A DNA stretch of 62,086 nucleotides, counting the filler. It is 14 parts of 14 records of this genome, joined end to end, with 100 filler letters (N's around TTAATTAATTAA, not from the genome) between each part and the next. Parts side by side here need not be neighbours in the genome. Positions count along the whole stretch, not along the records: positions 1 to 7,679 come from SRR7504441_21840; 13 more parts are not named here. The stretch is one strand, 5' to 3'. The first letter of the stretch is position 1; the number at the start of each line of letters is the position of its first letter. The translations under genes were made by a program, and so were the position numbers. The notes beneath the pieces were generated by a model. The model saw nothing but the letters and a program-made list of their open reading frames with translations. It ran no database searches and was not told where the DNA came from. Shown piece after piece: positions 1 through 62,086 of this stretch.

Positions 1-173
1 TCTATGCTCGTTTCGAGCTCACCTTCGGTGTAGGAACGCCACAGTACCGGTAGAATATTAATCTATGAGCCCCGGAATGGCCCAGATAGTCGTAGAGCGT
101 TCATAAAAACGTTGCTTGTCCAACGGTAGATCTACTCCGCGGGTGCGCAGCAGCGGGTCTGCACGGCTGCGAA

Positions 174-2697
174 ATGGAGCCAGAGGGTGAGACGCTGTCG
201 GTGGAGTTGGACTCAGCCCTGGCCGATCCCGAGTTCAATGTTGTGCAGACCATCAACCATCGGTTCCCTACAGGTCTGCGCCCAGCGCCGCGCCCAGCTG
301 AGTGTGTGACCGGGCAGAGGAGTCGCTGTCTGGGCTAGAGCCGTACCTTCGGGCCCTCCGGGACAAGATTGCTGAAATGGACGAAGGGATCATGATTGCT
401 GTCCGGCAGCAGGCCACCTGCGGCAACAAGGCCCAAGACGACCTCAAGGCGGCCCAGCGGGCGATCGTGGACCTGTCCAGCAAGACGGCGGACATCAAGA
501 AGCGGGCCGAGCAGAGCGAGGAGATGGTGAACGAGATCTGCGCGGACATCAAGCAGCTGGATCACGCCAAGCGCAACCTGGAGTATGCCCTGCGCAGCCT
601 GAAAGGGCTCCAGCTGATCATGGCGGCCGCCGAGCAGCTGAAAGAGCTGGCCGAGCTCAATCAGTACCGCGAGTGCGCAAACCTGCTGCAGGCAGTGATC
701 CCGATGGCCAAGCGGTTCGAGGAGCACAAACGGGTCACCAAAGTGCGCGACCTGCTGGATGATTTCGGCGAGATGAAGCAGTCGATCCGGGCGCAGGTGT
801 TCAAAGATCTGGAACTTTTCACAAATGAAGATTTGAGTCCACAGGATAAGGAAAAGTTTGGGGACGCCTGTCTGATTGTGGATGCGCTCGGGCCGGAAGC
901 TAAGCAGGATATGATCGCTCAGTTCAGCAGCCTTTTCACGCACAAGAGCCAGTTCCGGGTGTACGATGCGCTCCCGCTCGAGAAGACAGAAAAGCGGTTC
1001 ACTGCTCTGCGCAAACTGCTCCAAAGTTACGAGGAGCAATACGACCAGGTGTTCCCGCTCAACTGGAAGGTCCCGCAGGTGACTCGTTTAATCGATGTTG
1101 TTAGAGTGAGAATTCCCAGTGCGGTTTAGGGCCCTAAAGGTTGGGCAGACTCCTGACCGAGAATCCCTAAATTTGGCCTGTTGCCGTCTGCGCACTCACT
1201 CATGCTGTGTGTCACAGAAAATCTGTGAGGACTTCTGTAGAGTGACCAACAGTCACCTTCAGAAAGTTCTCAAGAAGAGTGGAGAGGACGGTCCCGAGGT
1301 CGGTCCCCTGCTTCATGTATTGCAAAAGACCATTGAATTCGAGCAAGAGCTTGGTGAGAGGTTTGCAGAGGAAATCATCATTGATGAAAGTGGTGTTGAA
1401 GTTGAGACAGAGGATTCGGAGGTGAATGAGTTGTACGAGGAGCTTCAGAACCTCGATACAACAACGACAGCAGGTATTCGTCGTAAATATGAACTGCTGC
1501 GCAAAATTGAGACTCGTCAGAAGCAATCTGACCATATTACATCCTCCACAGCTACCACTGTAAGGAGGCCAACGACGAGATTCTGTGGGATGCTGTCAAA
1601 TGTGTTTGAGCAGTACATGAGCGTCTATATCTCTGCAGAGGTTAGGAACATGAGGCAGATGATTGCCAGGGCTGTTGCTGAGGAAAAATGGGAAGTGGGT
1701 GAAACTGGTTTCACCAAATTAGTGGACAGCAGTGCCCAGATGTTCCTTGGCATTCGTAAAAGCCTTCAAAGATGCATTGCTCTAAACAAGGTGCAGCTTC
1801 CATAGCGCGCTCATTGCCCTTTCCTAGAATCTAATCGCCGTCTGGATGCAGGATGTGGTGCTATATGACATGCACAAGGATGTGTTCTGCGTTTGTCTGC
1901 GAGACTATGCAAATGCTCTTCGTGCTCGAATGTCGCAACAGGGCGGAGTCGATCAGTGTATCGTAATCTGCCTGATCATCAACACTGCTGATTATTGCTT
2001 TGAGACATGTGGTGAACTAGCAGAAAGCCTCAAAAAGGCCTTGACCAACTTGAACAGTGATTGGTCAGATCAAATATCGGTTGCAAATGAGCAGGCTGAA
2101 TTCCGTAGTGTACAAAACTTTGCTATCCGCGAACTGGTGGCAAATTTAATGAATCAATTGGATAAGGGATTCACAATGCTGGCGCGCATGCCATGGGGTA
2201 TGATTAAGGAGGTAGGAGATCATTCAACATATGTAGATGAAATCACAGAAGTACTTCAATCAAATGTGCCCAAATTTGGCCAGAATCTTGTTCCTGCTTT
2301 CTTCAACATGTTTTGCAACAAGTTTGTGGAGTCGTTTATTCCCAAGTATATCGATACAATCTTCTCGTGCAAAAACGTCGATGTGATCGCAGTGCAGCAA
2401 CTGCTTCTCGACACTGGAGCTATGCGCAGTTTGCTACTCAAAATACCCAGCATGGGAGATGCTACACCCAGTAACATGTTCACCAAGCTCACCAACAAAG
2501 ACATGGCTAAAGTGGAGGACCTGATGAAAACTCTCATGTCTGATAAGGATAGCATGGTCGAGGTCTTTTTGACGTTTGTCACGGACGGGAGTAAGTCTGA
2601 CTTTCAACGGGTATGTGAGTTGAAGGGGTTGAAAAAGCTTGAGATTGAGACATTGTGTCAAGTTCTCATGAGAAATCCGAGGGCTCCAAAGACATAA
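174..2697 (+). CDS. VPS53: GARP/EARP complex subunit Vps53 (4 exons; introns 274-317, 1079-1217, 1791-1851)
   Basis: Spliced start reads MEPEG...PEFNVVQTINHRFPT/EESL. Contains IKKRAEQSEEMVNEICADIKQLDHAKRNL, CLIINTADYC, VGDHSTYV and QQLLLDT, as in Vps53. GT-AG introns join three ORFs in frame. Confidence 0.93.
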
Positions 2698-3004
2698 ATT
2701 AATTATTTAAGTTAGAATACAATATTTACAGCATTCATCGGACAAGATTGATCTTGGCATGATCTCAAGTGATGAACATATATTAATTGGCTAAGACAAT
2801 CCGAGCCGGTACTTAGATTGATGATTGAGTTAGGTTTAAGCAGACTTTAGAAGTGCTTTACAAATCACACTATAATCACACTAGTGACTACGTCATAATT
2901 TTGAAAATCTCGTCGACATGTACAATTGCAACATTGCAACTGCTACATGTTTGCACTATATTTTGGTTGACACTAATGCATGGATGTGTCGTAGACTAAG
3001 AGCA

Positions 3005-6000
3005 TCAATCCTTACTGCACAACAATGCTACGCCTCTTAAGATCCAGTACCATTCAGGCTCTTCACTTCTTATTGATGGTCCATGTATCCTGGAATGCTA
3101 TCCAGTACATGGTCTGTGAGGTGCAATATGGGGGTCGCATTACTGATAATCTTGACCGGCGACTATTTGGTACGTACGGGCAGGCTTGGATTGCCTCGAA
3201 AGTGCTAGATCCCGCATTTGAATTCTCTCCAGGCGGCTGCATCATGGCCGCCCCAAAGCTTATTGGCTCAGCGGATATTTCAACCCGCAGGGTTTTTTGA
3301 CTGCAGTTCAGCAGGAAGTGACTCGGAAGCACACTTCTTGGTCTCTTGACGATGTGTCGCTATCGACTGAAGTCAGGCCAATAGAGAAAGAAGACCTGGA
3401 ACGAAGGCAAGAGGCAAAAGATGAAGAAGGAGTCTATATCTGGGGATTGTTCTTAGAGGGATGGTGCGTATGAAGCTTAGCCCCACCTGAAACTTGTGAG
3501 CTGATGGCACCTTATCTGCAAATGGATGACTTTGATCGAGAAACTGCAGCCAGAGCAAGTGGAGACATAGCAGGTATGTGTGACTGGTGCAAAGCCATGG
3601 TTAACTACTATTTTATTGCAAAGTTTGTTGCACCAAAGATAGAAGCTCTCAAAATGGCAGAACTGAAGCTTGCAGCAGCGAACGAAGAACTTGCGCAAGC
3701 TCAAAGCGAGCTGGAAGAAAAAGAACGTGAGGTGCTGGAACTCAATAATGAATTTTCAGCTGCCATGGGAGAGAAAATGAAGATTCAGGAAGAGGCAGAC
3801 ATGACCAGAGCAAAGATGGATGCAGCAACTCAGCTGATAGAAGGGCTGGCTGGTGCCTGATGGTTGTGACTACAACGAGAATTTCCGACTCTACTTCACT
3901 ACCAAGCTTGCTAACCCTCACTATACGCCAGAGTTGTCTGCTCAGACTACGGTCATCGATTTCACCGTCACAATGCAAGGTCTTGAGGACCAGCTACTGA
4001 GCATTGTAGTTCTCAAAGAGCCCTTGTCGAAATTTCTCAGTTCATCCAAAAATCGTGGCCGTGCCATCATGGTCTTGGATAGGTTGAAGGAAGCAAGGAT
4101 GGTTTTGTCTCCTCCCTTTGTTTCGTTGTCTGGATCTATTTCCACTGAAAGCAGCCTTTCTCGACGAAGAATGAGCACGCCGTCGAAGATTCGGCGGATC
4201 AAATTTGGCGGTTTTGCGAGTTTTTTTAGAGTGTTGATATCATCTGGTCTAATCGCATCCAAAGCTGCAAATGCCGCATCTAAGGCAGGCTGGGCCTCTT
4301 CCAGATCGCGATTACACGAATCTCTATCTGCTTGAATGCTGCTTGCCACTTCAGCCAAGTCGTTCTTTGTCATAGAAATACTTGATCACTTCGTCACGAA
4401 CAGCATCCGTGACACCGCTAGCCTTCTCATACATGGGAAGTAGTTCACCGATCATAGCTTCTAAGTCTTCTTTTGTGAGCAGGCCGGGAATTTCACCAGT
4501 GGACAGCACCATATTGATATATTCTAGGAAGCCCTCTTCCTTGACCTCAGCATCTGTCATGACAAACGTGACAGGGTGTTGAAAACCAGCTTTCAAGTAC
4601 TGGTTCTTGATGTCTTCGAGAAGGTGAGTGACACCGTAAGTCTTCGAGCCGGCTATCTGAAATTTTGTGTAGCCAGCAATATGAGCTGCCAAAGCAGTCA
4701 AACTTTGCTTACCAGAGCCACCGACACCAACCAGCATCGCACTACCCTTGGGCATGGAAATGATGCGCGAAATACGAGCGTTGATCACAGCGGTTCGAAT
4801 CAACTGTTGGCACCAGTAGAGAGGTAAAATCGAGGTTTTCGACATTTCCAACTTCGAGGGGCTGAGCGATGATGTTTACCCATTCAAACTTGTCATCCAA
4901 GGTCCAGCAGTAAGCGTCGGTATCCGGCGTCACAGTTGGTAGTGCACTGCTGAGAGTTCTGAGATGCTCTTCAAATACTTGACGATGATTCGTCTCGAAC
5001 AGTCCCCCAAACGACCAGAGGCAGCCAAATATAACAGCGCGCTCCAGCTGTTTAGCATTAAGAGGGGAATCTTTCTCGCTTCGTACCTCTGGAAGGATCC
5101 CTTGTAAGAGCATCAAACAAGAGCTCACCAAATTCATCACTGGAACTTCCATCACCAATCTACACTCTGAATTCTTTATGAAATCCTCACACGAGACAAA
5201 ATAATTTTCCAACAGCCAACCAGCCCTTTCTGCCGGCAGCAGTCGTGCACTGCTTGCTCGACTTCTGCAAACTGTGCCTTGGGTGGATTTAATCCTGGGA
5301 AAAGATCATTCACAAGTGAGAGAAAGAGCCCGACGTCCTCAGCCACAAATTTGGACATATTCATGTCACGAAGAGTACGACACAGCAGAAACGACTCAGA
5401 CTTTACCTTCGTTCCTGGTATAACCACCTTTCAATCACCTCAGTCGTCTCTCCCAACTTGCAGATCCAGAGATCTACTGTTTCTTTGAATGGTAGCGCAT
5501 AACGAGAACTAGCCATTCCTCCTAGTGTCATCAAGCTCTCTTCAAGATCCTCTTGAATCTCACCTGTTTCCACACCTTGCAAAATGTATAGCTGATTTCG
5601 ATTCTTGTATTGGATGAATGTAAATGCTCGTTCGGCCCACCTTTCCTCCAACTCTGTGAGCTTGATACCAATGTTGAATTCTTTTGTTGCAGCCATTCCG
5701 TTAATCGCTGAATACATGAGTAGCACTACTCGCAAGTTTGGTATTCAAGTGGAAAGTTTAGAAGACGTTCGAAAGCTAATGGGCATGCTCAAGGAAGTTT
5801 CAGATAAAGAATCCACGATAGAATGGGAATTTGGGCCGCTTGAGCAAAAATATGAAGTACTACAACACTATGGTGTGAAGTCGCTCACTCAGGAGGAGTT
5901 GACTCAAGTCAATGAACTGAGGACTAATTGGGAAAAGCTCAAAGCCCTCACATTTGGAGTTGCAGAAAGTCTCGGATCCATGCAAAATGAGTACAAACTC

Positions 6001-7679
6001 AATTTGATGGGCGATGTTGCTGATTTCAAACAGGCAGTCACAGCCTATACTCAGGATTACAAAGCTGTATTTAGGTCTTCACGAGCTATCTGCATGAACC
6101 CCTGCCCACACTGACACGTTTTTTTATGGCATTGAATGAGGTGCGCATGCACGAGAGAATTGCATGATACATCAGCCGGTTGTAATGCTCCTGCAATTGA
6201 GAAACAGCAAGTGGATTTGCTGCAATTGCTTTTCCAGTGCCGCCTGGTGCGCTCTCCTTGTCCAAAAGAGTTGAATTCACAAGTTGGAGCAGATCCTGAA
6301 CAGCAAGTTCAACAGCTAGGTTTTTGTCATCTAGTCCTGCCATGTTCTCTTTGACAAACTGTTCTTGGATTGAAACAAATTCAACGACATTGAAAGGAAA
6401 CTTGCTGGGATCGAGATCCACCAGTACTGTTCGTGAGATTATCTTCAAATTGCTTTCGATCCGATTCTCGATCATATCATTCATTTTGGTCACCAGGTCA
6501 TCAAGTTTGGATAATGAATGCGCCACAGCATCTAGATAGGTTGGTATATTCAGTGATGTCCACGTGATTGTGGTGAGCCCTGGGGTAATGTGCTGATCCA
6601 AATCTTCAAGATGAAACTGCAGTAACCATGTGCTTATTGTCAAGATCAGCTTTCAGAGTGTCTCTTAGAATAATGCATTGAAATCTGGACAGCATCTTCA
6701 ATGCCTGCTGCGTATTTGCGATGGTCTCGAAAGAAGAGTTGATGAATCCCTGAAGATTACTCTCCAAGTGGTGAATTGCAGCCTGAAATTCCAAAAAATC
6801 TCTTTCAAAGTTAGTCTTGGTATAGTCAAGCAAATTATATGGCTTCCGCTTGAGGTCTTCAAGAATCGCATCAAAGCTACTGAGTATCGGTTGCATGGCT
6901 TCTATGGCATTTGCTGCCATCATTGAGAACTGTTGGATCACGTTGAACATCTCAATCACTTTCTGCAGACGTTTAGAAAAGAGGTCAAATTTGCAGAAGA
7001 TCACATTTTCATTGAGATCAAAGGGATCGTCGCCCTTCGCAAGGGTAAGCAGCACCTTATTCTTGGTGACTTGGAATTGCTCCTGGTACATGTCAAACAG
7101 ATTATCACATGCCTGCATCCTCTTGATCAGTGCAGAGGGCTCATGATCCCAAAGGGACTGTCCTTGAGAGATGTTTCGCATGCAATTCACAATGATTTGG
7201 TTCGAGATTTTCGTAAGAAGCTGAGTCATGTGCTTTTCAGTGTTGTAGTATCGGGAGATCTGTTGCATCATTTTTACATTGTTCAGTAACGTGGGCAGAG
7301 TCTCAGCAACTTGCTGAGTTGTTCCTGTGTATATCACCTCCACAAACTTGTCCAGAGTGGCCAAGTACTTGACATTGTCTTTGGCTTCGTTCGCAGCATC
7401 GGTTATCTCATTGTCAAGAGTCCTCCAGTTTTTTAACGTTTTTTGGACATGCTCGTGGGTGTGCCTGGCTTCTCGCAGCACGCCAAGGATGACTTTACAT
7501 TCCTTGCATCTGAGCTGATCAGTCGTCCCTTTTCTGTTGATGCACCCTGACACTGTCCCAGTTGAGCAGGATCTGGCAGTGAGCGAAGTGGTGCTGGTGG
7601 GTGATCTGACAGCAACATTCAGGTTGAGCAAAGCAACCAGAATGAAGATGCAAGCAGCAAACCTTATCTAGCTTAAGAT
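3005..7679 (-). pseudogene. Rearranged, internally deleted axonemal dynein heavy chain (outer-arm gamma/DNAH5-DNAH8 type)
   Basis: Fragments: N-terminal tail (EAKDNVKYL, SRYYNT), DHC_N2, AAA1 lid (LRDMNMSKFVAED), AAA4 P-loop (LVGVGGSGKQSL), stalk, AAA5 ([13 protein letters not shown]), AAA6 lid (EVQYGGRITD), CTD (YFNPQGFLTA) and the true C-terminus WILRGVALLCSKD* (stop at 3005-3007, minus strand). They lie on both strands. The AAA1-AAA3 P-loops are absent. Confidence 0.9.
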
Positions 7680-7779
7680 NNNNNNNNNNNNNNNNNNNNN
7701 NNNNNNNNNNNNNNNNNNNNNNNTTAATTAATTAANNNNNNNNNNNNNNNNNNNNNNNNNNNNNNNNNNNNNNNNNNNN
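7680..7779. other. Artificial contig spacer N44-TTAATTAATTAA-N44. Also at 11302, 15417, 19561, 23023, 26681, 30174, 36573, 40081, 43590, 47945, 53020 and 57942 (100 nt each)
   Basis: The identical 100-nt block with an all-frame stop linker occurs 13 times, and genes are cut at its edges. Confidence 0.99.
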
Positions 7780-11199: not shown

Positions 11200-11737
11200 C
11201 CGAATCAAACACAACGGACGAAATCAATCGGTCCGGGGATCGATCTCGCGAGCAGCATTGCGCGATGGATTGCCGGCCTGACAGCGGCGAGACGGCGGAC
11301 GNNNNNNNNNNNNNNNNNNNNNNNNNNNNNNNNNNNNNNNNNNNNTTAATTAATTAANNNNNNNNNNNNNNNNNNNNNNNNNNNNNNNNNNNNNNNNNNN
11401 NCAGACCGGTGAGGACGACACCATTTACGAATGAGAGAGTCCCTATTGTAAGCTGTGATTGATGTTATTTAATTTTCTGCTCATGTACAGTTGAATACCA
11501 TAGATCTAGCCTAATAATTTTGATAGGTTGCTTTGTTTATTCAAGTAAATGCATGTATAAAGTGCTCATGTAAATCAGAAACACGACCAAACGACTTGTA
11601 CGACTTGACGAAACTTGTATGGTACGATTACCAAGATATTACCAAGACATTCGGTATGGCGTCCGTGGACATTGCAATATTGTTTGGAACACGAGTACAT
11701 GGCTGGTATGGCAAGACCACGCTATCAGTCACGCGAA

Positions 11738-15232: not shown

Positions 15233-15416
15233 CTAATCGCTATCGTCGCCGAAGGACATCTTGGAGCCCTGGAAATCTTGGATTGTGTCACTTTGACGGG
15301 ACGGGCCCTTGCCTTTACCCTTGCCCTTGCCCTTGCCCTTCCCCTTGCCTTTGCCCTTGCCCTTCCCCTTGCCGCTGTCGCCCTTGCCCTTGCCTCCCTT
15401 GCCCTTGCCTCCCTTG
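15233..15416 (-). CDS. 3' end of a nucleolin/Nsr1-like protein with a Lys-Gly repeat tract (partial)
   Basis: Translation KGGKGKGGKGKGDSG(KG)n...PSRQSDTIQDFQGSKMSFGDDSD*. The tail resembles the nucleolin/Nsr1/gar2 FxGxKxxFxD terminus. Confidence 0.55.
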
Positions 15417-15516
15417 NNNNNNNNNNNNNNNNNNNNNNNNNNNNNNNNNNNNNNNNNNNNTTAATTAATTAANNNNNNNNNNNNNNNNNNNNNNNNNNNN
15501 NNNNNNNNNNNNNNNN

Positions 15517-32995: not shown

Positions 32996-33355
32996 CGCGA
33001 CCAGCCGCAGGTGTCTATAGCTTTTGCATCGAAGTCGGGTGCGGTGCACGTAGGCTACACGGACGGCGCGCGGCCTCTTGAGCGTGGCTAGAGCGTAGCC
33101 GGGTGTCCTGCATGATATTGTGCTACTGCTAGTACAATCATGTTTACAAATGAAATAGCCTCCGGGTTCCGGCGGAGGTGGGTCGATCTCTTTTTTTGTT
33201 TTGTAACTTAGAGTCTTATTAGAGTCTAGACGGTTCCAGGTCCAGCTGCAGTACCGGTAGATCAAAAAAAAAAATCAATAGTCTACTAGTCAGCTGACAG
33301 TACACACTCCGTGTTCCCGCTTCCTCCAAACTGACTGCGCTGCCCGATTCACCCG

Positions 33356-35116
33356 ATGAAGGCCAGTGCTGCACGGCGGCTGCTGGGTGGTCGGCTGGCG
33401 TGCACCCGCGCTGGATACACCAGCGGCGGGCTCCGGCTCGAGCTGGACGGCCGGGAGCACCGGGTGTCCCCGCTCTGGCTCCGGCTCAAAGACGAGCGGC
33501 AGCTCACCGCCAACCGGCAGCGGCTGGTCGAGATCGGGTCGCTCGTGGAGGCCTCGACCCCGGTGAGCAGCCAGTTCGAGCCCGGGGGCGAGGGCCTCCG
33601 GCTGGGCTGGGAGGACGGCACCGAGTCGGTCTTCTCGGCCGAGTGGCTGCGGCGCGAGCTCAGTCAACCGAGCCAGGGTGCAGGGCCCACGCTCTGGAAC
33701 GGCAACTTTGGCCCTTTTGTGCCAGAGGTGGAGCACCGGGAGCTGTCGGGCGGCGAGGGGCGGCGGGCGGTATCGGCGGCCCTGGTGAGATACGGGTTGG
33801 CGATCGTGCGCGGGGTGCCCTGCAGGCCGGGGGCGGTGCTAGAGGTGGGCGGAATGCTGGGGCGGGTGCGGCACACCAACTACGGCGAGCTGTTCGAGGT
33901 GGTGGACTTGGGCAGCCGGGGGAACAACTTGGCCCAGACCAATTGCCACATCAGGGCGCACACTGACAACCCGTACAGGGACCCGTTCCCCGGTGTCCAA
34001 CTGCTCCACTGCCTCGAGAATGCCTCGCAAGGCGGCGCCACCACTTTCACCGACGGGTTCGCCTGCGCCGAGGCCCTCCGGCACAGCCGACCGGACCAGT
34101 TCGCGTTGCTGGCCGAGCACCGTCACCCGTTCTCTTACGAGGACCCGACCCAGGGCGTGCTGCTCCAGAGTGCCGCGCCGGTGCTCTCCGTAGCCGGGCC
34201 TTGCCAGCAGCTGGAGCGGGTGTGCTTTAACAACAGGTCGGCCGGGGTGCTTGGGCTCGAGGACGAGCAGCAGCTCAAGGAGTACTACCGGGCGTGGGCA
34301 AACTTTGATCGGCTGTGTAACCTGCCCGAGAATCAGATCAAGATAGAGCTCAGGCCTGGCGACTTGGCGGTCTTTTTGAACTCGAGGGTGATGCATGGAC
34401 GCGAGCAGTACACCCCAGGCGCCGGCCGGCATATCCAGGGCTGCTACATCGACCACGACGCCGTCCGATCGCGGTGTGACGCCAGCCAGCTAGAGCCGGG
34501 ATGTGCGCACCTGGCTGCGGCTGATCAAGTGATGCAAGCGCTGGCCAGCCAGGCACAGTTCTGCTACGGCGAGCGGCTCGACATGCTCCAGCACGCGCTG
34601 CAGGCGGCGCACTTCGCAGCGGAGCAGCAAGAGGGCGAGGAGGCCGTGCTGGCCGCGCTGATGCACGATGTGGGCAACAGCCCGCAGGCCCGGGCAGTGT
34701 GGGAGCGGCAAGGCAGGCAGCCGGAGCTGATGCAGACCAACGAGGACGGCTCGATTGGGTACCGGCACCACTCGGAGATAGGGGCAGACTACCTGAGCCA
34801 GGCCGGCTTCTCAGACGGGCTGGCGAACGCTGTAAGGCTGCATGTGAGCGCCAAGCGGGCGCTGGTCGCGATGGATCCGGCTTACATGCAAGAGCTCTCC
34901 GACGCCTCGATCGCCACGCTCGCCCAGCAGGGTGGCCCGATGTCCGTAGCTGAGCTCGAGCAGTTTAATGCCACACCTGGCTCAGACATCGCACTGAGGC
35001 TTCGCAAGTACGACGATCAGGGCAAGGACAGCGAGTTGAGCCCGCCACAGCTCGAGAGCTACAGGACGCTCATCCGTGATCACCTAGCGGCCAGGTCCAC
35101 GCCGCAGTTCGACTAA
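33356..35116 (+). CDS. Fusion of a BBOX/TmpA-like Fe(II)/2OG dioxygenase and a PhnZ/TmpB-like HD-domain diiron oxygenase
   Basis: Single intronless 586-aa ORF. GBBH-like N-domain (WEDGTESVFSAEWLR), HTDNPYRDP, QLLHCL, DGF and NSRVMHGR, followed by YGE..MLQHALQAA, ALMHDVG, HHSEIGA, LHVSAKR, LSDASIATLAQQGGPM and LRKYDDQGK. Confidence 0.9.
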   Translation: MKASAARRLLGGRLACTRAGYTSGGLRLELDGREHRVSPLWLRLKDERQLTANRQRLVEIGSLVEASTPVSSQFEPGGEGLRLGWEDGTESVFSAEWLRRELSQPSQGAGPTLWNGNFGPFVPEVEHRELSGGEGRRAVSAALVRYGLAIVRGVPCRPGAVLEVGGMLGRVRHTNYGELFEVVDLGSRGNNLAQTNCHIRAHTDNPYRDPFPGVQLLHCLENASQGGATTFTDGFACAEALRHSRPDQFALLAEHRHPFSYEDPTQGVLLQSAAPVLSVAGPCQQLERVCFNNRSAGVLGLEDEQQLKEYYRAWANFDRLCNLPENQIKIELRPGDLAVFLNSRVMHGREQYTPGAGRHIQGCYIDHDAVRSRCDASQLEPGCAHLAAADQVMQALASQAQFCYGERLDMLQHALQAAHFAAEQQEGEEAVLAALMHDVGNSPQARAVWERQGRQPELMQTNEDGSIGYRHHSEIGADYLSQAGFSDGLANAVRLHVSAKRALVAMDPAYMQELSDASIATLAQQGGPMSVAELEQFNATPGSDIALRLRKYDDQGKDSELSPPQLESYRTLIRDHLAARSTPQFD

Positions 35117-57941: not shown

Positions 57942-58240
57942 NNNNNNNNNNNNNNNNNNNNNNNNNNNNNNNNNNNNNNNNNNNNTTAATTAATTAANNN
58001 NNNNNNNNNNNNNNNNNNNNNNNNNNNNNNNNNNNNNNNNNACTCTTGTAGAAATAAAGAACACGCTTAAATTTCGCTTGAGGTTAGCTTGAGGTTATGT
58101 GGGCCTTAGGACTCCGACTTTCAGAATCTAATAAATGTACTTATCCGCTTAAATTACGCTCAAATTTAATCGCACCCAATCGCCCAATCTGCCAACCGCA
58201 GTCGAATCTCACGCGGAGCCGTTGGATAATCCGAAGTAAA

Positions 58241-61200
58241 TCAGAAGACGAGTTGGCCAACCATTTCAACACTACCGAAAAGGTGTGGGATGCCCCATGA
58301 GGCGAGCGCCCCAACCAGCAGGTTGGCCCCGAGCTCGCCCAGCACCCGGATCGTGTTGCGCAGAGAGATGTTCACGCCCTTGCGCACCCCGGGCTGCCGG
58401 CCAGTCAGCGGCTGCCAGCCAGTTGCACGCACCTTGCCCTTGCCCGTGGCGCCGCTCAGGGTGAGCGAGCGGAGCATGGCTTCCGAGGCGACCAGATATA
58501 CCTGCGCTCCCACTCGGCTCGGCCCACGGGCCAGGCCGCACCTTGGAGAGCATCCATTGGACACTGAGCAGGATCGCGATCCCGGCGCTCCAACGGACAC
58601 TGGCCAGCAGCATCGAGCTGGGCAGGCTGGGTTGCGCAGCACGCATCACTGCGGGGCTGGTGTAGCCGAGCAGGAACCCGGCACCAAACCCGCTCATCTT
58701 GACAGCGAGCACGAACGTGCTGTTCAGGTGTGGCCGACGGGGCACTGGGTGCAGCAGCAGAGCGGCCGCTGTGATTGCCAGGATCCACCACGGGCTCTGG
58801 GCGCTTAGGATGGCCATGTCGATTCCAGCGGCCTGCCCGAGCCAGATCCGGAGCAGCAGCGCACCCATAAAGCAGCCGCCTTGCACGTCGGCCGGCGACG
58901 AGCGGCCGTAGTAGAGCCGGGAGGTAACCACAAGGAAGGTGAGTATGAAGGTGGCTCCAAATGTTCTGAAGAGGCTGGTCGGATTCTCGCTCTCCCAGAG
59001 CCACACAGACCCGTACAGGCACCGGAGCAGGAAGAAGGGCAGGCAACTGGCCGACATGCAGTGCAGCGACGGCCAGCCAAAGTCGGAGTCGCCCGCACCG
59101 GGCGGCCGGCGGAGGCAGAACACGTTCTTGGTGAACGAGCCGACGTAGACGAGCACCACGTAGAGTGTGATGAGCATCCGGCCGAGCTTTGGGTCGACAT
59201 TCCAGTTGAGCCAGAGCCCGAGCGAGAGCCAGGCGTACTCGGATCCACAGAGCGAGAAGCAGAGCATCATGAAGTCCAGGATCGGGTTGCGCAGGTGGTT
59301 GAGGAAGAGCAGAGTGGTGTTCTGGCCCCACTGCACCTGGTCCTCCAGGTGGTCGCGCGCGTTCTTGACCGCCCAGTTGAAGAAGGCAAACATCGGCACT
59401 GACACGTACGAGTTATGCGAGTAGATGGCTTGGTCGCTCCAGTCTAGCCCGGGCAGCTTCTTGAGACTGTCCTCTCCATTTAAACTTCTGCGCCGCGAGC
59501 CGCTCCGCTGGAGGGTTGGGTCGTAGATCAGGCCAAGGCTCACGCTGCCGCTTCGCCTGTGTGTGCGAGGCGGCGACTTGCCAGTGCTCTCACTACGGAT
59601 CCGCCCATTTTGCTCTTTGGTGCTCTCAGAAGCTTTGCTATCCAGGTGGAGCGAGGTGAGCGAAGGCACGCTCATGGATGGCGAGATCGATGGAGACGAC
59701 TCGCGTGAGCGACGGGACGGCTTGATTTGGCTCTCAGCGATGGCGGTGGAGAGTGCATCAGCAAGCTTCTCAGCCACGCTGGTGAGCAGCGGGCCGGTGA
59801 GGTCGGCCGAGGCGCACAACCGGAGTGCAGGGCTCGGCCTCGAGCGCTCGATCGAGGAGAATCGGGCCTGTGTGATTGCCAGTTTGGACTCCGACTCGAG
59901 CAGGCTGCGCGCCACGGCGTCGACAGAGCTCTCAGTGGCGCCCAGCCAGCGGAGGTGCATCATAGGCGAGCTGTGGTGGCCAGTCACTTCGAGCCCTGGG
60001 ATCACTTTGAGCGCGGCGCGCAGCGTGCTCGTGGCGGTGCACAGCCTCTCACGCCGATCCGAATCATTGTCCAGGCACCTGATCGCTTCGGTGGCCGCGG
60101 TGCACAGGAACGGAGGCAGCGATGCCGAGAAGCAGTACCCCGAACCGGACAGCCGCTGGTGCTCAACCACGGTCTCCGACCCGCAGCAGAATCCGCCCAC
60201 TGCGGCGCAGCACGTCTCGAGCGAACCGACCAGGATCTCAGCGTGCGACGAGTCGAGCCCAAAGTGCTCCAGGCTGCCACGGCCAGTCGGCCCGAGCACC
60301 CCGAACCCGAGTGAGTCGTCCAGGATCATCCGGAGCGCGTGCCGTTGCTTGAGTCGGACTAGCTGGTCCAGTGGGGCCAGATCACCAGAGTTGGCAAACA
60401 CGCCCTCAGTCACCAGAAAGCGCCGGCGGATCGCCTTCTTGGTGAGCCTGGCAGAGTACAGCCCGTCCTCACGCTCGAGCTCGGCCAGCACCTTCTCCAG
60501 GTGCTCCATATCGTTGTGCCGGTACCAGTACAGCTTGGCCCGCGAGAGCGCGGCCCCGACCTGAGCCGAGTAGCTGATCCCATCGTCGATCACCAGCACG
60601 TCGGTCTGCTTGGCAAACGCAGGAATTACCGATGAGATGGTCGCCGAGCCGAACGAGTACAGGATGGCGCCCTCGGTCCGCATAAAGTCGGCGATCGCTT
60701 TCTCGAGCCCGAGGTGCTGCTCGAGAGTCCCGTAGAAGCCTCGAGGCCCACACGAGCCCACACCGAACGTTGAGATAACCTCGGCCGCCGCCTCCAGGAT
60801 CGGCCGGTGCATGCGCAGCCCGAGGAAGTTGTACGTGGAGAGCTGGACCACTCCTTCCCGGAGCAGCTCGCCGGAGTTTGGCCGCCACGCGCTCAGTTGG
60901 TCGGAGGGCGGCGCGAGAGGTTCCGGGCTCCACTCAGGCAGCGCGTCCATGTCGAGCGGCTTGCGCGGCTTGGCGGGCGAGGCCGGCAGGGCCGGTTTGG
61001 CTTTTGTGTAGCACACGCCTACTGTCTTGCACACCATCTCGATCTTGTCAAGCGCCCAGTCCAGATCCTCAGTCGTGTGAGACGCCGAGATGCAGAACCG
61101 AGCCCTCGAGAGCAGCAGCGGGACAGCCGGAAACCCGACGACCACTGCGGCAATCTCACGCTCAAAGCACTCGCGCGAGAACTCGAACATCTTGTTTGGG

Positions 61201-62086
61201 TGGTAGAGCATGGCCGGGATGACGGGTGAGTCGCCAGGCCCGAGCACCACGCACCCGATCTTCCGGAGCCCATTGTAGAACTGAGCCGAGTTCCTCTTGA
61301 GCTGGGCGATCTTGTCGCGCCCGCGGGTGGAGCCGTCCTCGCCCATGATCAGCTGGAGCGCCCGGAACGCCTGCACGGCGCACGGTGGCGACATGCCGGA
61401 GGAGTAGATGGCCGAGGCTGACTTGTTCCGGAGGATGTCAATCACCTGCTGCGAGGCGGCGATGTAACCTCCGAACGAGCCAAACGACTTGGTCAGCGTG
61501 CCCATCATGATGTCCACCTCCGACGGGTCCACCCCGAGCCGCTCGCACACCCCCCTGCGCCAAACCGGTCAGCGAGTCAGTCGCACAGCCAGCGCCGACC
61601 TGCCGCTGTCGCCGATAGCACCAATTGAATGGGCTTCATCCAGATACAGGTAGGCGTTGTGCTTGTTCTTGACCTGCACGATCTCGGGCAGCCGGCAGAT
61701 CTCGCCCTCCATCGAGTAGACGCCCTCCACAATCACCAGGATCTTAGTCCACGGCTTGCCGCTCCCAGGCTGGCCCTTGAGCCGGCTCTGGTAGAGCACC
61801 CTGTCCAAGTCGGCCGGGTCGTTGTGCCCAAATACCTTGACCTAACCAGATGCTCGGCCCCAGCCGGACCCTAACCCCAACCCTAACCCTAAAGGTGCAT
61901 TGCCTTGGCCGCCGCCGCTCGGGCACCCTCGACAATCGAGGTGTGGTTGAGCGAATCGGAGATGATCAGGCTGCCTGGGCCCATCAGCGCGGGCAGCGTG
62001 TGCGAATTGGTCGCGAAACCCATCCCATACACCATGCTCGCCTGCCCGCCGTCGGGCCAGCCGCCCAGCCCAGCCGCCCAGCCCAG
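58241..62086 (-). CDS. Serine palmitoyltransferase LCB2-LCB1 fusion with a C-terminal PAP2 (sphingosine-1-phosphate phosphatase-like) domain (5' partial)
   Basis: LCB2: [27 protein letters not shown] (PLP Lys). LCB1: [26 protein letters not shown]2: [21 protein letters not shown]. The C-terminal part of LCB2, all of LCB1 and PAP2 lie in one uninterrupted ORF. Confidence 0.93.
61869..61893. repeat. Interstitial telomere-like (CCCTAA)n tract inside intron 61842-61903
   Basis: ccctaaccccaaccctaaccctaaa. Confidence 0.75.

Follow-up and report, generated by a model that had tools for sequence, protein, structure and literature searches.

Does the locus described here record the recent destruction of a flagellar dynein gene, or was an intact gene cut up on its way into an assembly? 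The window, by which we mean the whole stretch of DNA analysed (62,086 nucleotides, nt), is a 62-kb series of 14 contigs of 3.4-7.7 kb each, separated by 13 artificial spacers; contigs on either side of a spacer are unrelated, and neighbourhood over a spacer carries no meaning. Its first contig bears a gene for VPS53 and, facing it, the pieces of an outer-arm dynein heavy chain gene. The original prediction, made from the letters, took these pieces for a gene shattered in place, with loss of the flagellum or of a flagellate stage, and listed an artefact as an alternative. It is this alternative that we now favour: on balance, the contig probably strings true segments of an intact outer-arm dynein gene into a chimera, through rearrangement during amplification or library making followed by assembly. 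In the uncultured marine protist concerned, the native gene and VPS53 lie tail-to-tail.

The pieces were mapped by tblastn with the full-length dynein P0066 (4636 amino acids, aa). One outer-arm gamma/DNAH5-type heavy chain is represented between 3005 and 7545 by 13 pieces free of stops and introns, labelled A to M (Table 1), with a further short block, q, between B and C. Together they account for about 1500 of the 4636 residues of P0066, or ~32% of the protein. All 11 full-length references tried gave the identical layout, with 6 to 13 pieces per reference, and each of the 12 dynein open reading frames (ORFs) submitted to Pfam matched dynein heavy-chain families, in the order DHC_N1, DYH2-5-8_CC, DHC_N2, AAA_6, Dynein_AAA_lid, AAA_8, MT, AAA_9, MT, Dynein_C and AAA_lid_11. 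Read along the minus strand, the blocks follow one another as A, B, q, C, D, E, F, G, H, I-J, K-L and M; C is inverted, and so are I-J and K-L, each as a single block. The native order is kept across 11 units, three of which are flipped in place. The match of piece M is weak (E 0.09 by itself against P0066; three of the 11 references, at E 0.01-0.09).

Of the 13 blocks, five were tested (A, B, G, I and L), and in each of them the same gamma/DNAH5/Tetrahymena chains lead, which indicates that the pieces derive from one gene class. These chains are Chlamydomonas gamma (7kzm_C), the Tetrahymena outer-arm chain Dyh3, DNAH5 (8j07_n0), 9e5c_7a, 9y6s_5X and 9fqr_I3. For the DHC_N1 tail in piece A, the Chlamydomonas gamma chain is the closest relative of solved structure and reached E 7e-80, as against 7.5e-20 for inner-arm I1 beta and 4e-16 for outer-arm beta. 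With block G, the score of the beta chain comes close to that of the gamma/DNAH5 class.

About 1500 dynein codons run without a stop or frameshift, and the region 2700-7679 contains no repeat above chance, nothing being duplicated. The continuous frame, AAA1 P-loop, AAA2-AAA6, full stalk and C-terminal domain of a functional dynein are not found together here. The P-loop part of AAA1 is absent, AAA_6 being represented by positions 233-294 of 327 alone. Adjacent same-strand pieces lie in different frames wherever these could be read from the ORF list, with the exception of L and I, which share a frame with a stop between them; no mini-dynein could therefore be translated. The window holds none of the missing dynein segments, and elsewhere in it a single stray, weak dynein match was found (41207-40968, E 0.069). 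Neither of the two 25-nt fillers in the gene region has a match elsewhere in the contig.

In its structural description the original prediction was largely sound. The origin from an ODA2/DNAH5-class gene, the loss of roughly two-thirds of the protein with the AAA1 P-loop included, the lack of duplications and of internal stops or frameshifts, the intact VPS53 and damage that is structural rather than due to point mutation all agree with our results. The native order with three flipped blocks is likewise supported by Pfam and tblastn, while the count of about 14 fragments becomes 13 plus the 31-nt q, and the block ends have been refined.

To place the joins against other data, we compared the contigs of two runs from different studies, X1 and X2, and of two poly(A) RNA runs, X3 and X4, with a threshold of 90% likeness; runs X5-X9, with shares of 0.05-0.06, were not used. 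Most matching stretches are at least 99% alike to the window. The RNA runs cover VPS53 and, in the dynein pieces, match over a single stretch of 36 nt with three mismatches. Positions 1-1524 and ~4525-5376 are uncovered in all four runs and count neither way, and three join sites (G|F, F|E and E|D) have no covering contigs.

At 11 of the 15 join sites, at least one run contradicts the window, either by continuing natively in frame or by joining the block to another, and at six sites both X1 and X2 do so. The segments are native sequence, and the DNA of the same species in other samples continues natively past most joins. The block ends obtained from these contigs fall at 3234|3235, 3460|3461, 3485|3486, 4021|4022, 4367|4368, 5702|5703, 6066|6067, 6097|6098, 6624|6625 and 7520-7546.

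Starting from the capsized C-terminal blocks, record 4 of X1 contains 568 intervening letters at the K|L join (3234|3235), which restore L to the frame of K. Record 9 of X2 enters L natively, reading ...LTSW before LHHGRPKAYW where P0066 has ...LRQW LDRGRPHSFW, and at the end of L (3460) X1 and X2 continue with identical letters, as G-AAWDKKGSK against G-AAWNK in P0066 (both by hand translation). The start of I and the end of H (3486/4022) are directly joined in record 5 of X1 and adjacent in the references, with a median gap of five residues. At H|G (4367|4368), record 10 of X2 departs from the window and continues for 349 letters. Record 5 of X1 and record 11 of X2 both join 5703/4 to 6066/7, so that C follows q directly and unflipped; the shorter sides of this joint, at 31-32 letters, are near our limit of caution, and the two runs agree. 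On either side of q|B (6097|6098), records 11 and 12 of X2 continue natively. At B|A (6624|6625), record 5 of X1 carries other letters between the blocks; judged from the record coordinates, these would number at most 545, fitting the expected 184 residues and the frame. Between 7520 and 7546, X1 has 611 letters against 25 in the window, and X2 shows a 4-nt insertion at 7602.

The runs differ in how far they are themselves rearranged. Ten X2 contigs were placed, and the sole joint listed for them is a native one. The 12.7-kb contig of X1 (record 5), on the other hand, has non-native joins, namely a 549-nt skip inside A and C joined to H, the passage from 4368 to 6066 being X1's own; it also has an extra T in the T run at 4220, which would break the frame of H, open in the window copy. 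This contig orders the same blocks differently, which implies that several rearranged versions of one locus exist. In X1, the rearranged contig has a depth of 19, against 9.4 for the native K-L contig and 3.4-6.7 for VPS53; these values hint at uneven amplification but were given no weight, since the parts of a gene cannot be ranked by contig depth.

The sequence of the segments bears no point damage. Across the window and X1/X2 we counted nine coding differences, six in dynein and three in VPS53, all of them in third positions and synonymous; everything else that differs falls between the genes or in 7546-7679. This indicates that the dynein sequence has been under the same purifying selection as VPS53 up to the present. 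Thirteen or more structural changes without any point change make ordinary decay a poor fit. The inference that the gene was destroyed in place and the flagellum lost is accordingly unsupported: 11 of 15 joins are contradicted by other runs, and nine of nine differences are synonymous. The original prediction had added that junctions carried only by single or amplified-library reads, together with independent reads spanning the intact gene, would point to an amplification or assembly chimera; as to the second of these, two runs of two studies do continue natively or join the blocks otherwise at those 11 sites, with I|J as an apparently shared join.

The joins themselves follow a pattern. The strand changes at four of 14 and stays the same at 10, and at all eight joints listed with a contig of another run on both sides, 0-1 letters are shared, from which we take the joins to be blunt. 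Estimated as medians from as many as 11 references, the stretches lost between blocks that are neighbours in the native gene measure 552, ~620, 549, 1656, ~600-627, 1146, 564, ~0, 558, 1572, 582 and 201 nt. Other-run contigs give 568 nt (K to L, direct), 549 nt (the skip in the contig of X1, direct) and 545 nt (A to B, as read from record coordinates). The missing lengths cluster at 545-620 nt: seven of the 12 fall in 540-630 nt, and further ones come close to double or triple that size. Random partitions of the same total equalled seven of 12 in none of 200,000 trials for this size range and in none of 20,000 for a free one, and the clustering therefore points to a systematic process.

Several sources for this ~550-600-nt rule were tried and rejected. 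Restriction or proximity-ligation sites would leave a common motif, and by eye the joins have none; nucleosome multiples do not fit kept blocks of 31, 82, 265 and 291 nt. Lost FASTA lines are incompatible with 545, 549 and 568 nt at any single line length, and concatenated read pairs cannot account for both joins of a block flipped in place. Block ends without introns in the native sequence speak against recombination between intron elements, and native flanks that are not GT..AG against removal by the spliceosome. Templated insertions were set aside because the fillers match nothing else in the contig. No natural or technical process that we could name fits both the length rule and the blunt joins.

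We favour a chimeric contig because the gene is intact elsewhere in the species, at least two versions of the skeleton exist, point changes are lacking, the length rule holds and the source is a patchwork. The rearranged molecules probably formed during whole-genome amplification or when the library was made, and would then have been chained together as the thinly covered locus was assembled. Such molecules would carry the blunt ~550-600-nt skips and in-place flips, and they probably exist physically in at least X1. Assemblies made from amplified single-cell DNA are reported to contain spurious inversions and deletions (bioRxiv 10.64898/2026.06.11.730069). Chimeras of phi29 multiple displacement amplification (MDA) resemble the present case in their local joins within a few kb, inversions with deletions, lack of point damage, several versions of a locus and false structural variants.

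A number of observations weigh against this explanation. Of the MDA chimeras described, 85% are inverted, only 11 of 348 short-range ones being direct (PMC1855051), and here the strand changes at four of 14 joins as against 337 of 348. Two or more complementary bases are present in 77-93% of MDA chimeras (PMC1855051) and their overlaps peak at 6 nt (PMC4595205), unlike the 0-1 letters found at all eight joints. MDA chimeras occur about once per 10-22 kb (PMC1855051, PMC4595205); the joins here come at ~1 per 350 nt, and the mostly same-strand joins and the length rule likewise set them apart. Moreover, the damage is limited to the dynein gene, 3 kb of VPS53 on the same contig being whole, and the largest ORFs of the other contigs, of up to 1098 aa, carry whole domains. 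At M|K, record 3 of X1 spans 2632-3077 and stops exactly at the join. The I|J join appears to be common to the window and record 5 of X1, which covers 3486-4021 with no joint among the matches listed and differs from the window at three places. Finally, no join specific to the window is demonstrated to be false, the comparison resting on contigs of other runs, and a real precedent for dynein loci riddled with deletions is on record (PMC4438323).

That precedent, which the original prediction had rightly named, is Emiliania huxleyi CCMP1516, all of whose dynein heavy-chain loci are pseudogenes bearing large deletions; these deletions differ between two homologous scaffolds, were confirmed by polymerase chain reaction and resequencing, and are absent from other strains, which are intact (PMC4438323). 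By analogy with E. huxleyi strains that no longer have a flagellate stage, one allele or strain copy in the present protist could have undergone real and very recent erosion by blunt deletions and in-place inversions, with other genotypes intact, a reading that we consider rather unlikely. It would account for damage that ends within ~70 nt of the 3' end of the gene and spares the essential neighbour, for two data sets with different, overlapping rearranged forms that have the I|J join in common, and for 0-1 shared letters, which suit end joining more than mispriming by a polymerase. The dynein "fossils" of CCMP1516/EH2 are similar in that a heavy chain is cut to short, highly similar segments with allele-specific patterns and intact versions elsewhere, and unlike in that they were established by polymerase chain reaction and resequencing in clonal cultures, whereas only metagenome contigs are at hand here (PMC4438323). 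The organism here is not Emiliania huxleyi, the best identities within the length bands searched being 57%, 34% and 79%.

Erosion, however, requires at least 13 structural events without a substitution, in the face of nine of nine synonymous differences and 1500 undamaged codons, and in the bulk-type run X2 the single joint listed is a native one. The ~550-600-nt size rule has no known natural cause, and the sequence comes from a patchwork of short environmental contigs. Chromothripsis followed by end joining would give blunt joins, fragment loss, inverted fragments and no point mutations, as seen here. It differs in the fully native order, the three of 11 flipped units and the uniform lost lengths; random re-ligation would not yield the native order of 11 units. 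Were the joins nonetheless real in living cells, the protist would be dismantling its outer-arm dynein by an undescribed, length-measuring deletion (units of ~550-600 nt and multiples, blunt, with in-place flips), with different skeleton alleles per cell, an Emiliania-like loss of the flagellate stage and other genotypes intact. We hold this to be distinctly doubtful.

Programmed or somatic rearrangement, in which the contig would be a germline-like scrambled copy or a processing intermediate with the missing segments elsewhere, as in ciliates, seems very improbable. Like the scrambled germline genes of spirotrichs, the locus has misoriented segments, an alternation of kept and missing segments and an open frame in every segment, and an intact version stands alongside in X1. 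Unlike those genes, it shows no pointer repeats at the block ends, no repeats above chance, and no spacer DNA to be eliminated, the blocks abutting with 0-1 shared letters. Its frames are open in the standard code, with no reassigned stops, and the introns of VPS53 are ordinary GT-AG. In addition, some blocks are common to the window and record 5 of X1, and hence are not single-copy segments across data sets, and the suggestion of a scrambled gene with its missing pieces elsewhere finds none of them in the window.

A pseudogene at a second locus beside VPS53, by retrocopy or mobile-element capture with the working gene elsewhere, is scarcely credible: intron-free pieces next to a VPS53 gene with three introns would suit it, but there is no poly(A) trace past the 3' untranslated region, X2 passes the block ends natively without introns, so that the native gene is intron-poor here too, and record 3 of X1, from another strain (seven substitutions and two indels), also links VPS53 to the dynein C-terminus, which marks this as the native place of the gene.

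The coordinates of all features are collected in Table 1. VPS53 converges on the 3' end of the dynein gene; it is collinear with its homologue P0208 over residues 47-775, its ORF matches VPS53_C in Pfam, and an RNA contig (record 14 of X3) is spliced at 1788|1850. Within VPS53 (317-2697), third-position GC (GC3) falls from 0.85-1.0 (377-796) to 0.53-0.75 (797-1036) and then to 0.33-0.65 past the intron at 1079-1217. Within one collinear gene, such a fall may reflect a natural 5'-3' gradient, or two strains joined together. The drop to about 0.5 near 800-1200 had suggested that VPS53 might itself combine two organisms; this candidate was discarded, the gene being collinear with homologues.

Table 1. 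Features of the first contig and the spacer that follows it. Ranges of P0066 residues are given with the window positions at which they match.
Feature	Position	Strand	Content	P0066 match
Contig 1	1-7679		Whole real unit bearing the dynein pieces; ends at spacer	
VPS53 gene, intact	174-2697	+	Short GT-AG introns at ~268-316, ~1079-1217 and ~1790-1850	
Piece M	3005-3077	-	C-terminus and TGA stop; native position by VPS53 3' end	4614-4635 at 3076>3008
Piece K	3078-3234	+ (flipped)	AAA6 lid, AAA_lid_11	4200-4254 at 3085>3249
Piece L	3235-3460	+ (flipped)	C-terminal domain, Dynein_C 151-221 of 309	4471-4544 at 3237>3461
Filler of 25 nt	3461-3485		Between L and I; neighbours on both sides end there	
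Piece I	3486-3857	+ (flipped)	Microtubule-binding domain and second stalk coiled coil (CC2), MT 171-290	3306-3427 at 3489>3854
Piece J	3860-4021	+ (flipped)	AAA5, AAA_9 111-162	3621-3671 at 3868>4020
Piece H	4022-4367	-	First stalk coiled coil (CC1), MT 69-173	3174-3297 at 4379>4023
Piece G	4368-4793	-	AAA4, AAA_8 14-151	2855-2994 at 4776>4360
Piece F	4794-5215 (approximate)	-	Lid between AAA2 and AAA3, Dynein_AAA_lid	2322-2467 at 5167>4745
Piece E	5216-5411 (approximate)	-	End of AAA1, AAA_6 233-294 of 327	2046-2100 at 5400>5239
Piece D	5412-5702	-	Linker, DHC_N2 138-226 of 403	1381-1468 at 5693>5421
Piece C	5703-6066	+ (flipped)	Tail coiled coil, DYH2-5-8_CC	1067-1191 at 5689>6060
Piece q	6067-6097	-	31 nt natively preceding C (record 5 of X1, record 11 of X2)	
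Piece B	6098-6624	-	Tail, end of DHC_N1 onward	720-909 at 6613>6041
Piece A	6625-7520	-	Tail, DHC_N1 48-345 of 562	295-603 at 7529>6624
Second 25-nt stretch	7521-7545		Beyond A; replaced by 611 letters in X1	
Contig end	7546-7679		Probably non-coding, up to the end of the contig	
Artificial spacer	7680-7779		44 N + TTAATTAATTAA + 44 N; one of 13 in the window	

The other 12 spacers lie at 11302-11401, 15417-15516 and onward to 57942-58041. The GC content of contig 1 is 0.47, and that of the 13 remaining contigs 0.52-0.66. The stretch is present only in marine and aquatic metagenome runs, the top run sharing 0.40 of its words and a run of a second study following at 0.22. Protein searches over limited length bands brought up nothing near-identical to VPS53 or to the pieces; identity reached at most 57% (tail), 34% (VPS53) and 79% (the conserved piece L). 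A scan of JGI metagenomes returned five loci of 46-69% identity, the same species being in none of them. Two of the metagenome contigs, L001 and L002, are 14 kb long and encode tails 50-51% identical to piece A; they could provide intact outer-arm dynein genes of related uncultured protists for reference.

Other contigs of the window hold features of their own. An open frame of 1098 aa at 58272-61568 on the minus strand combines class I/II aminotransferase and PAP2 phosphatase domains, possibly as a natural fusion or as unspliced neighbours. On the plus strand, in a single open frame at 33335-35116, a TauD/TfdA dioxygenase domain precedes an HD domain. Three tandem 54-nt units stand at a contig start (43690-43851), and a run of 12-nt units of GCCCTT type at 15305-15382. 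The repeat search over the whole window found no MDA-typical palindromes.

If the contig is chimeric, as we favour, environmental and single-cell assemblies of eukaryotes can show an intact gene as a striking pseudogene, and claims of gene loss from such bins, of the kind "no flagellum", need checks at the level of reads. The blunt ~550-600-nt skips would then be a type of artefact absent from the available parts of the MDA literature cited (PMC1855051, PMC4595205). If the joins are real, the locus would provide a second, independent instance in ocean plankton of flagellar dynein genes being rapidly eroded by deletion, with an unexplained length rule in addition, and would bear on how frequently marine protists abandon sex or motility.

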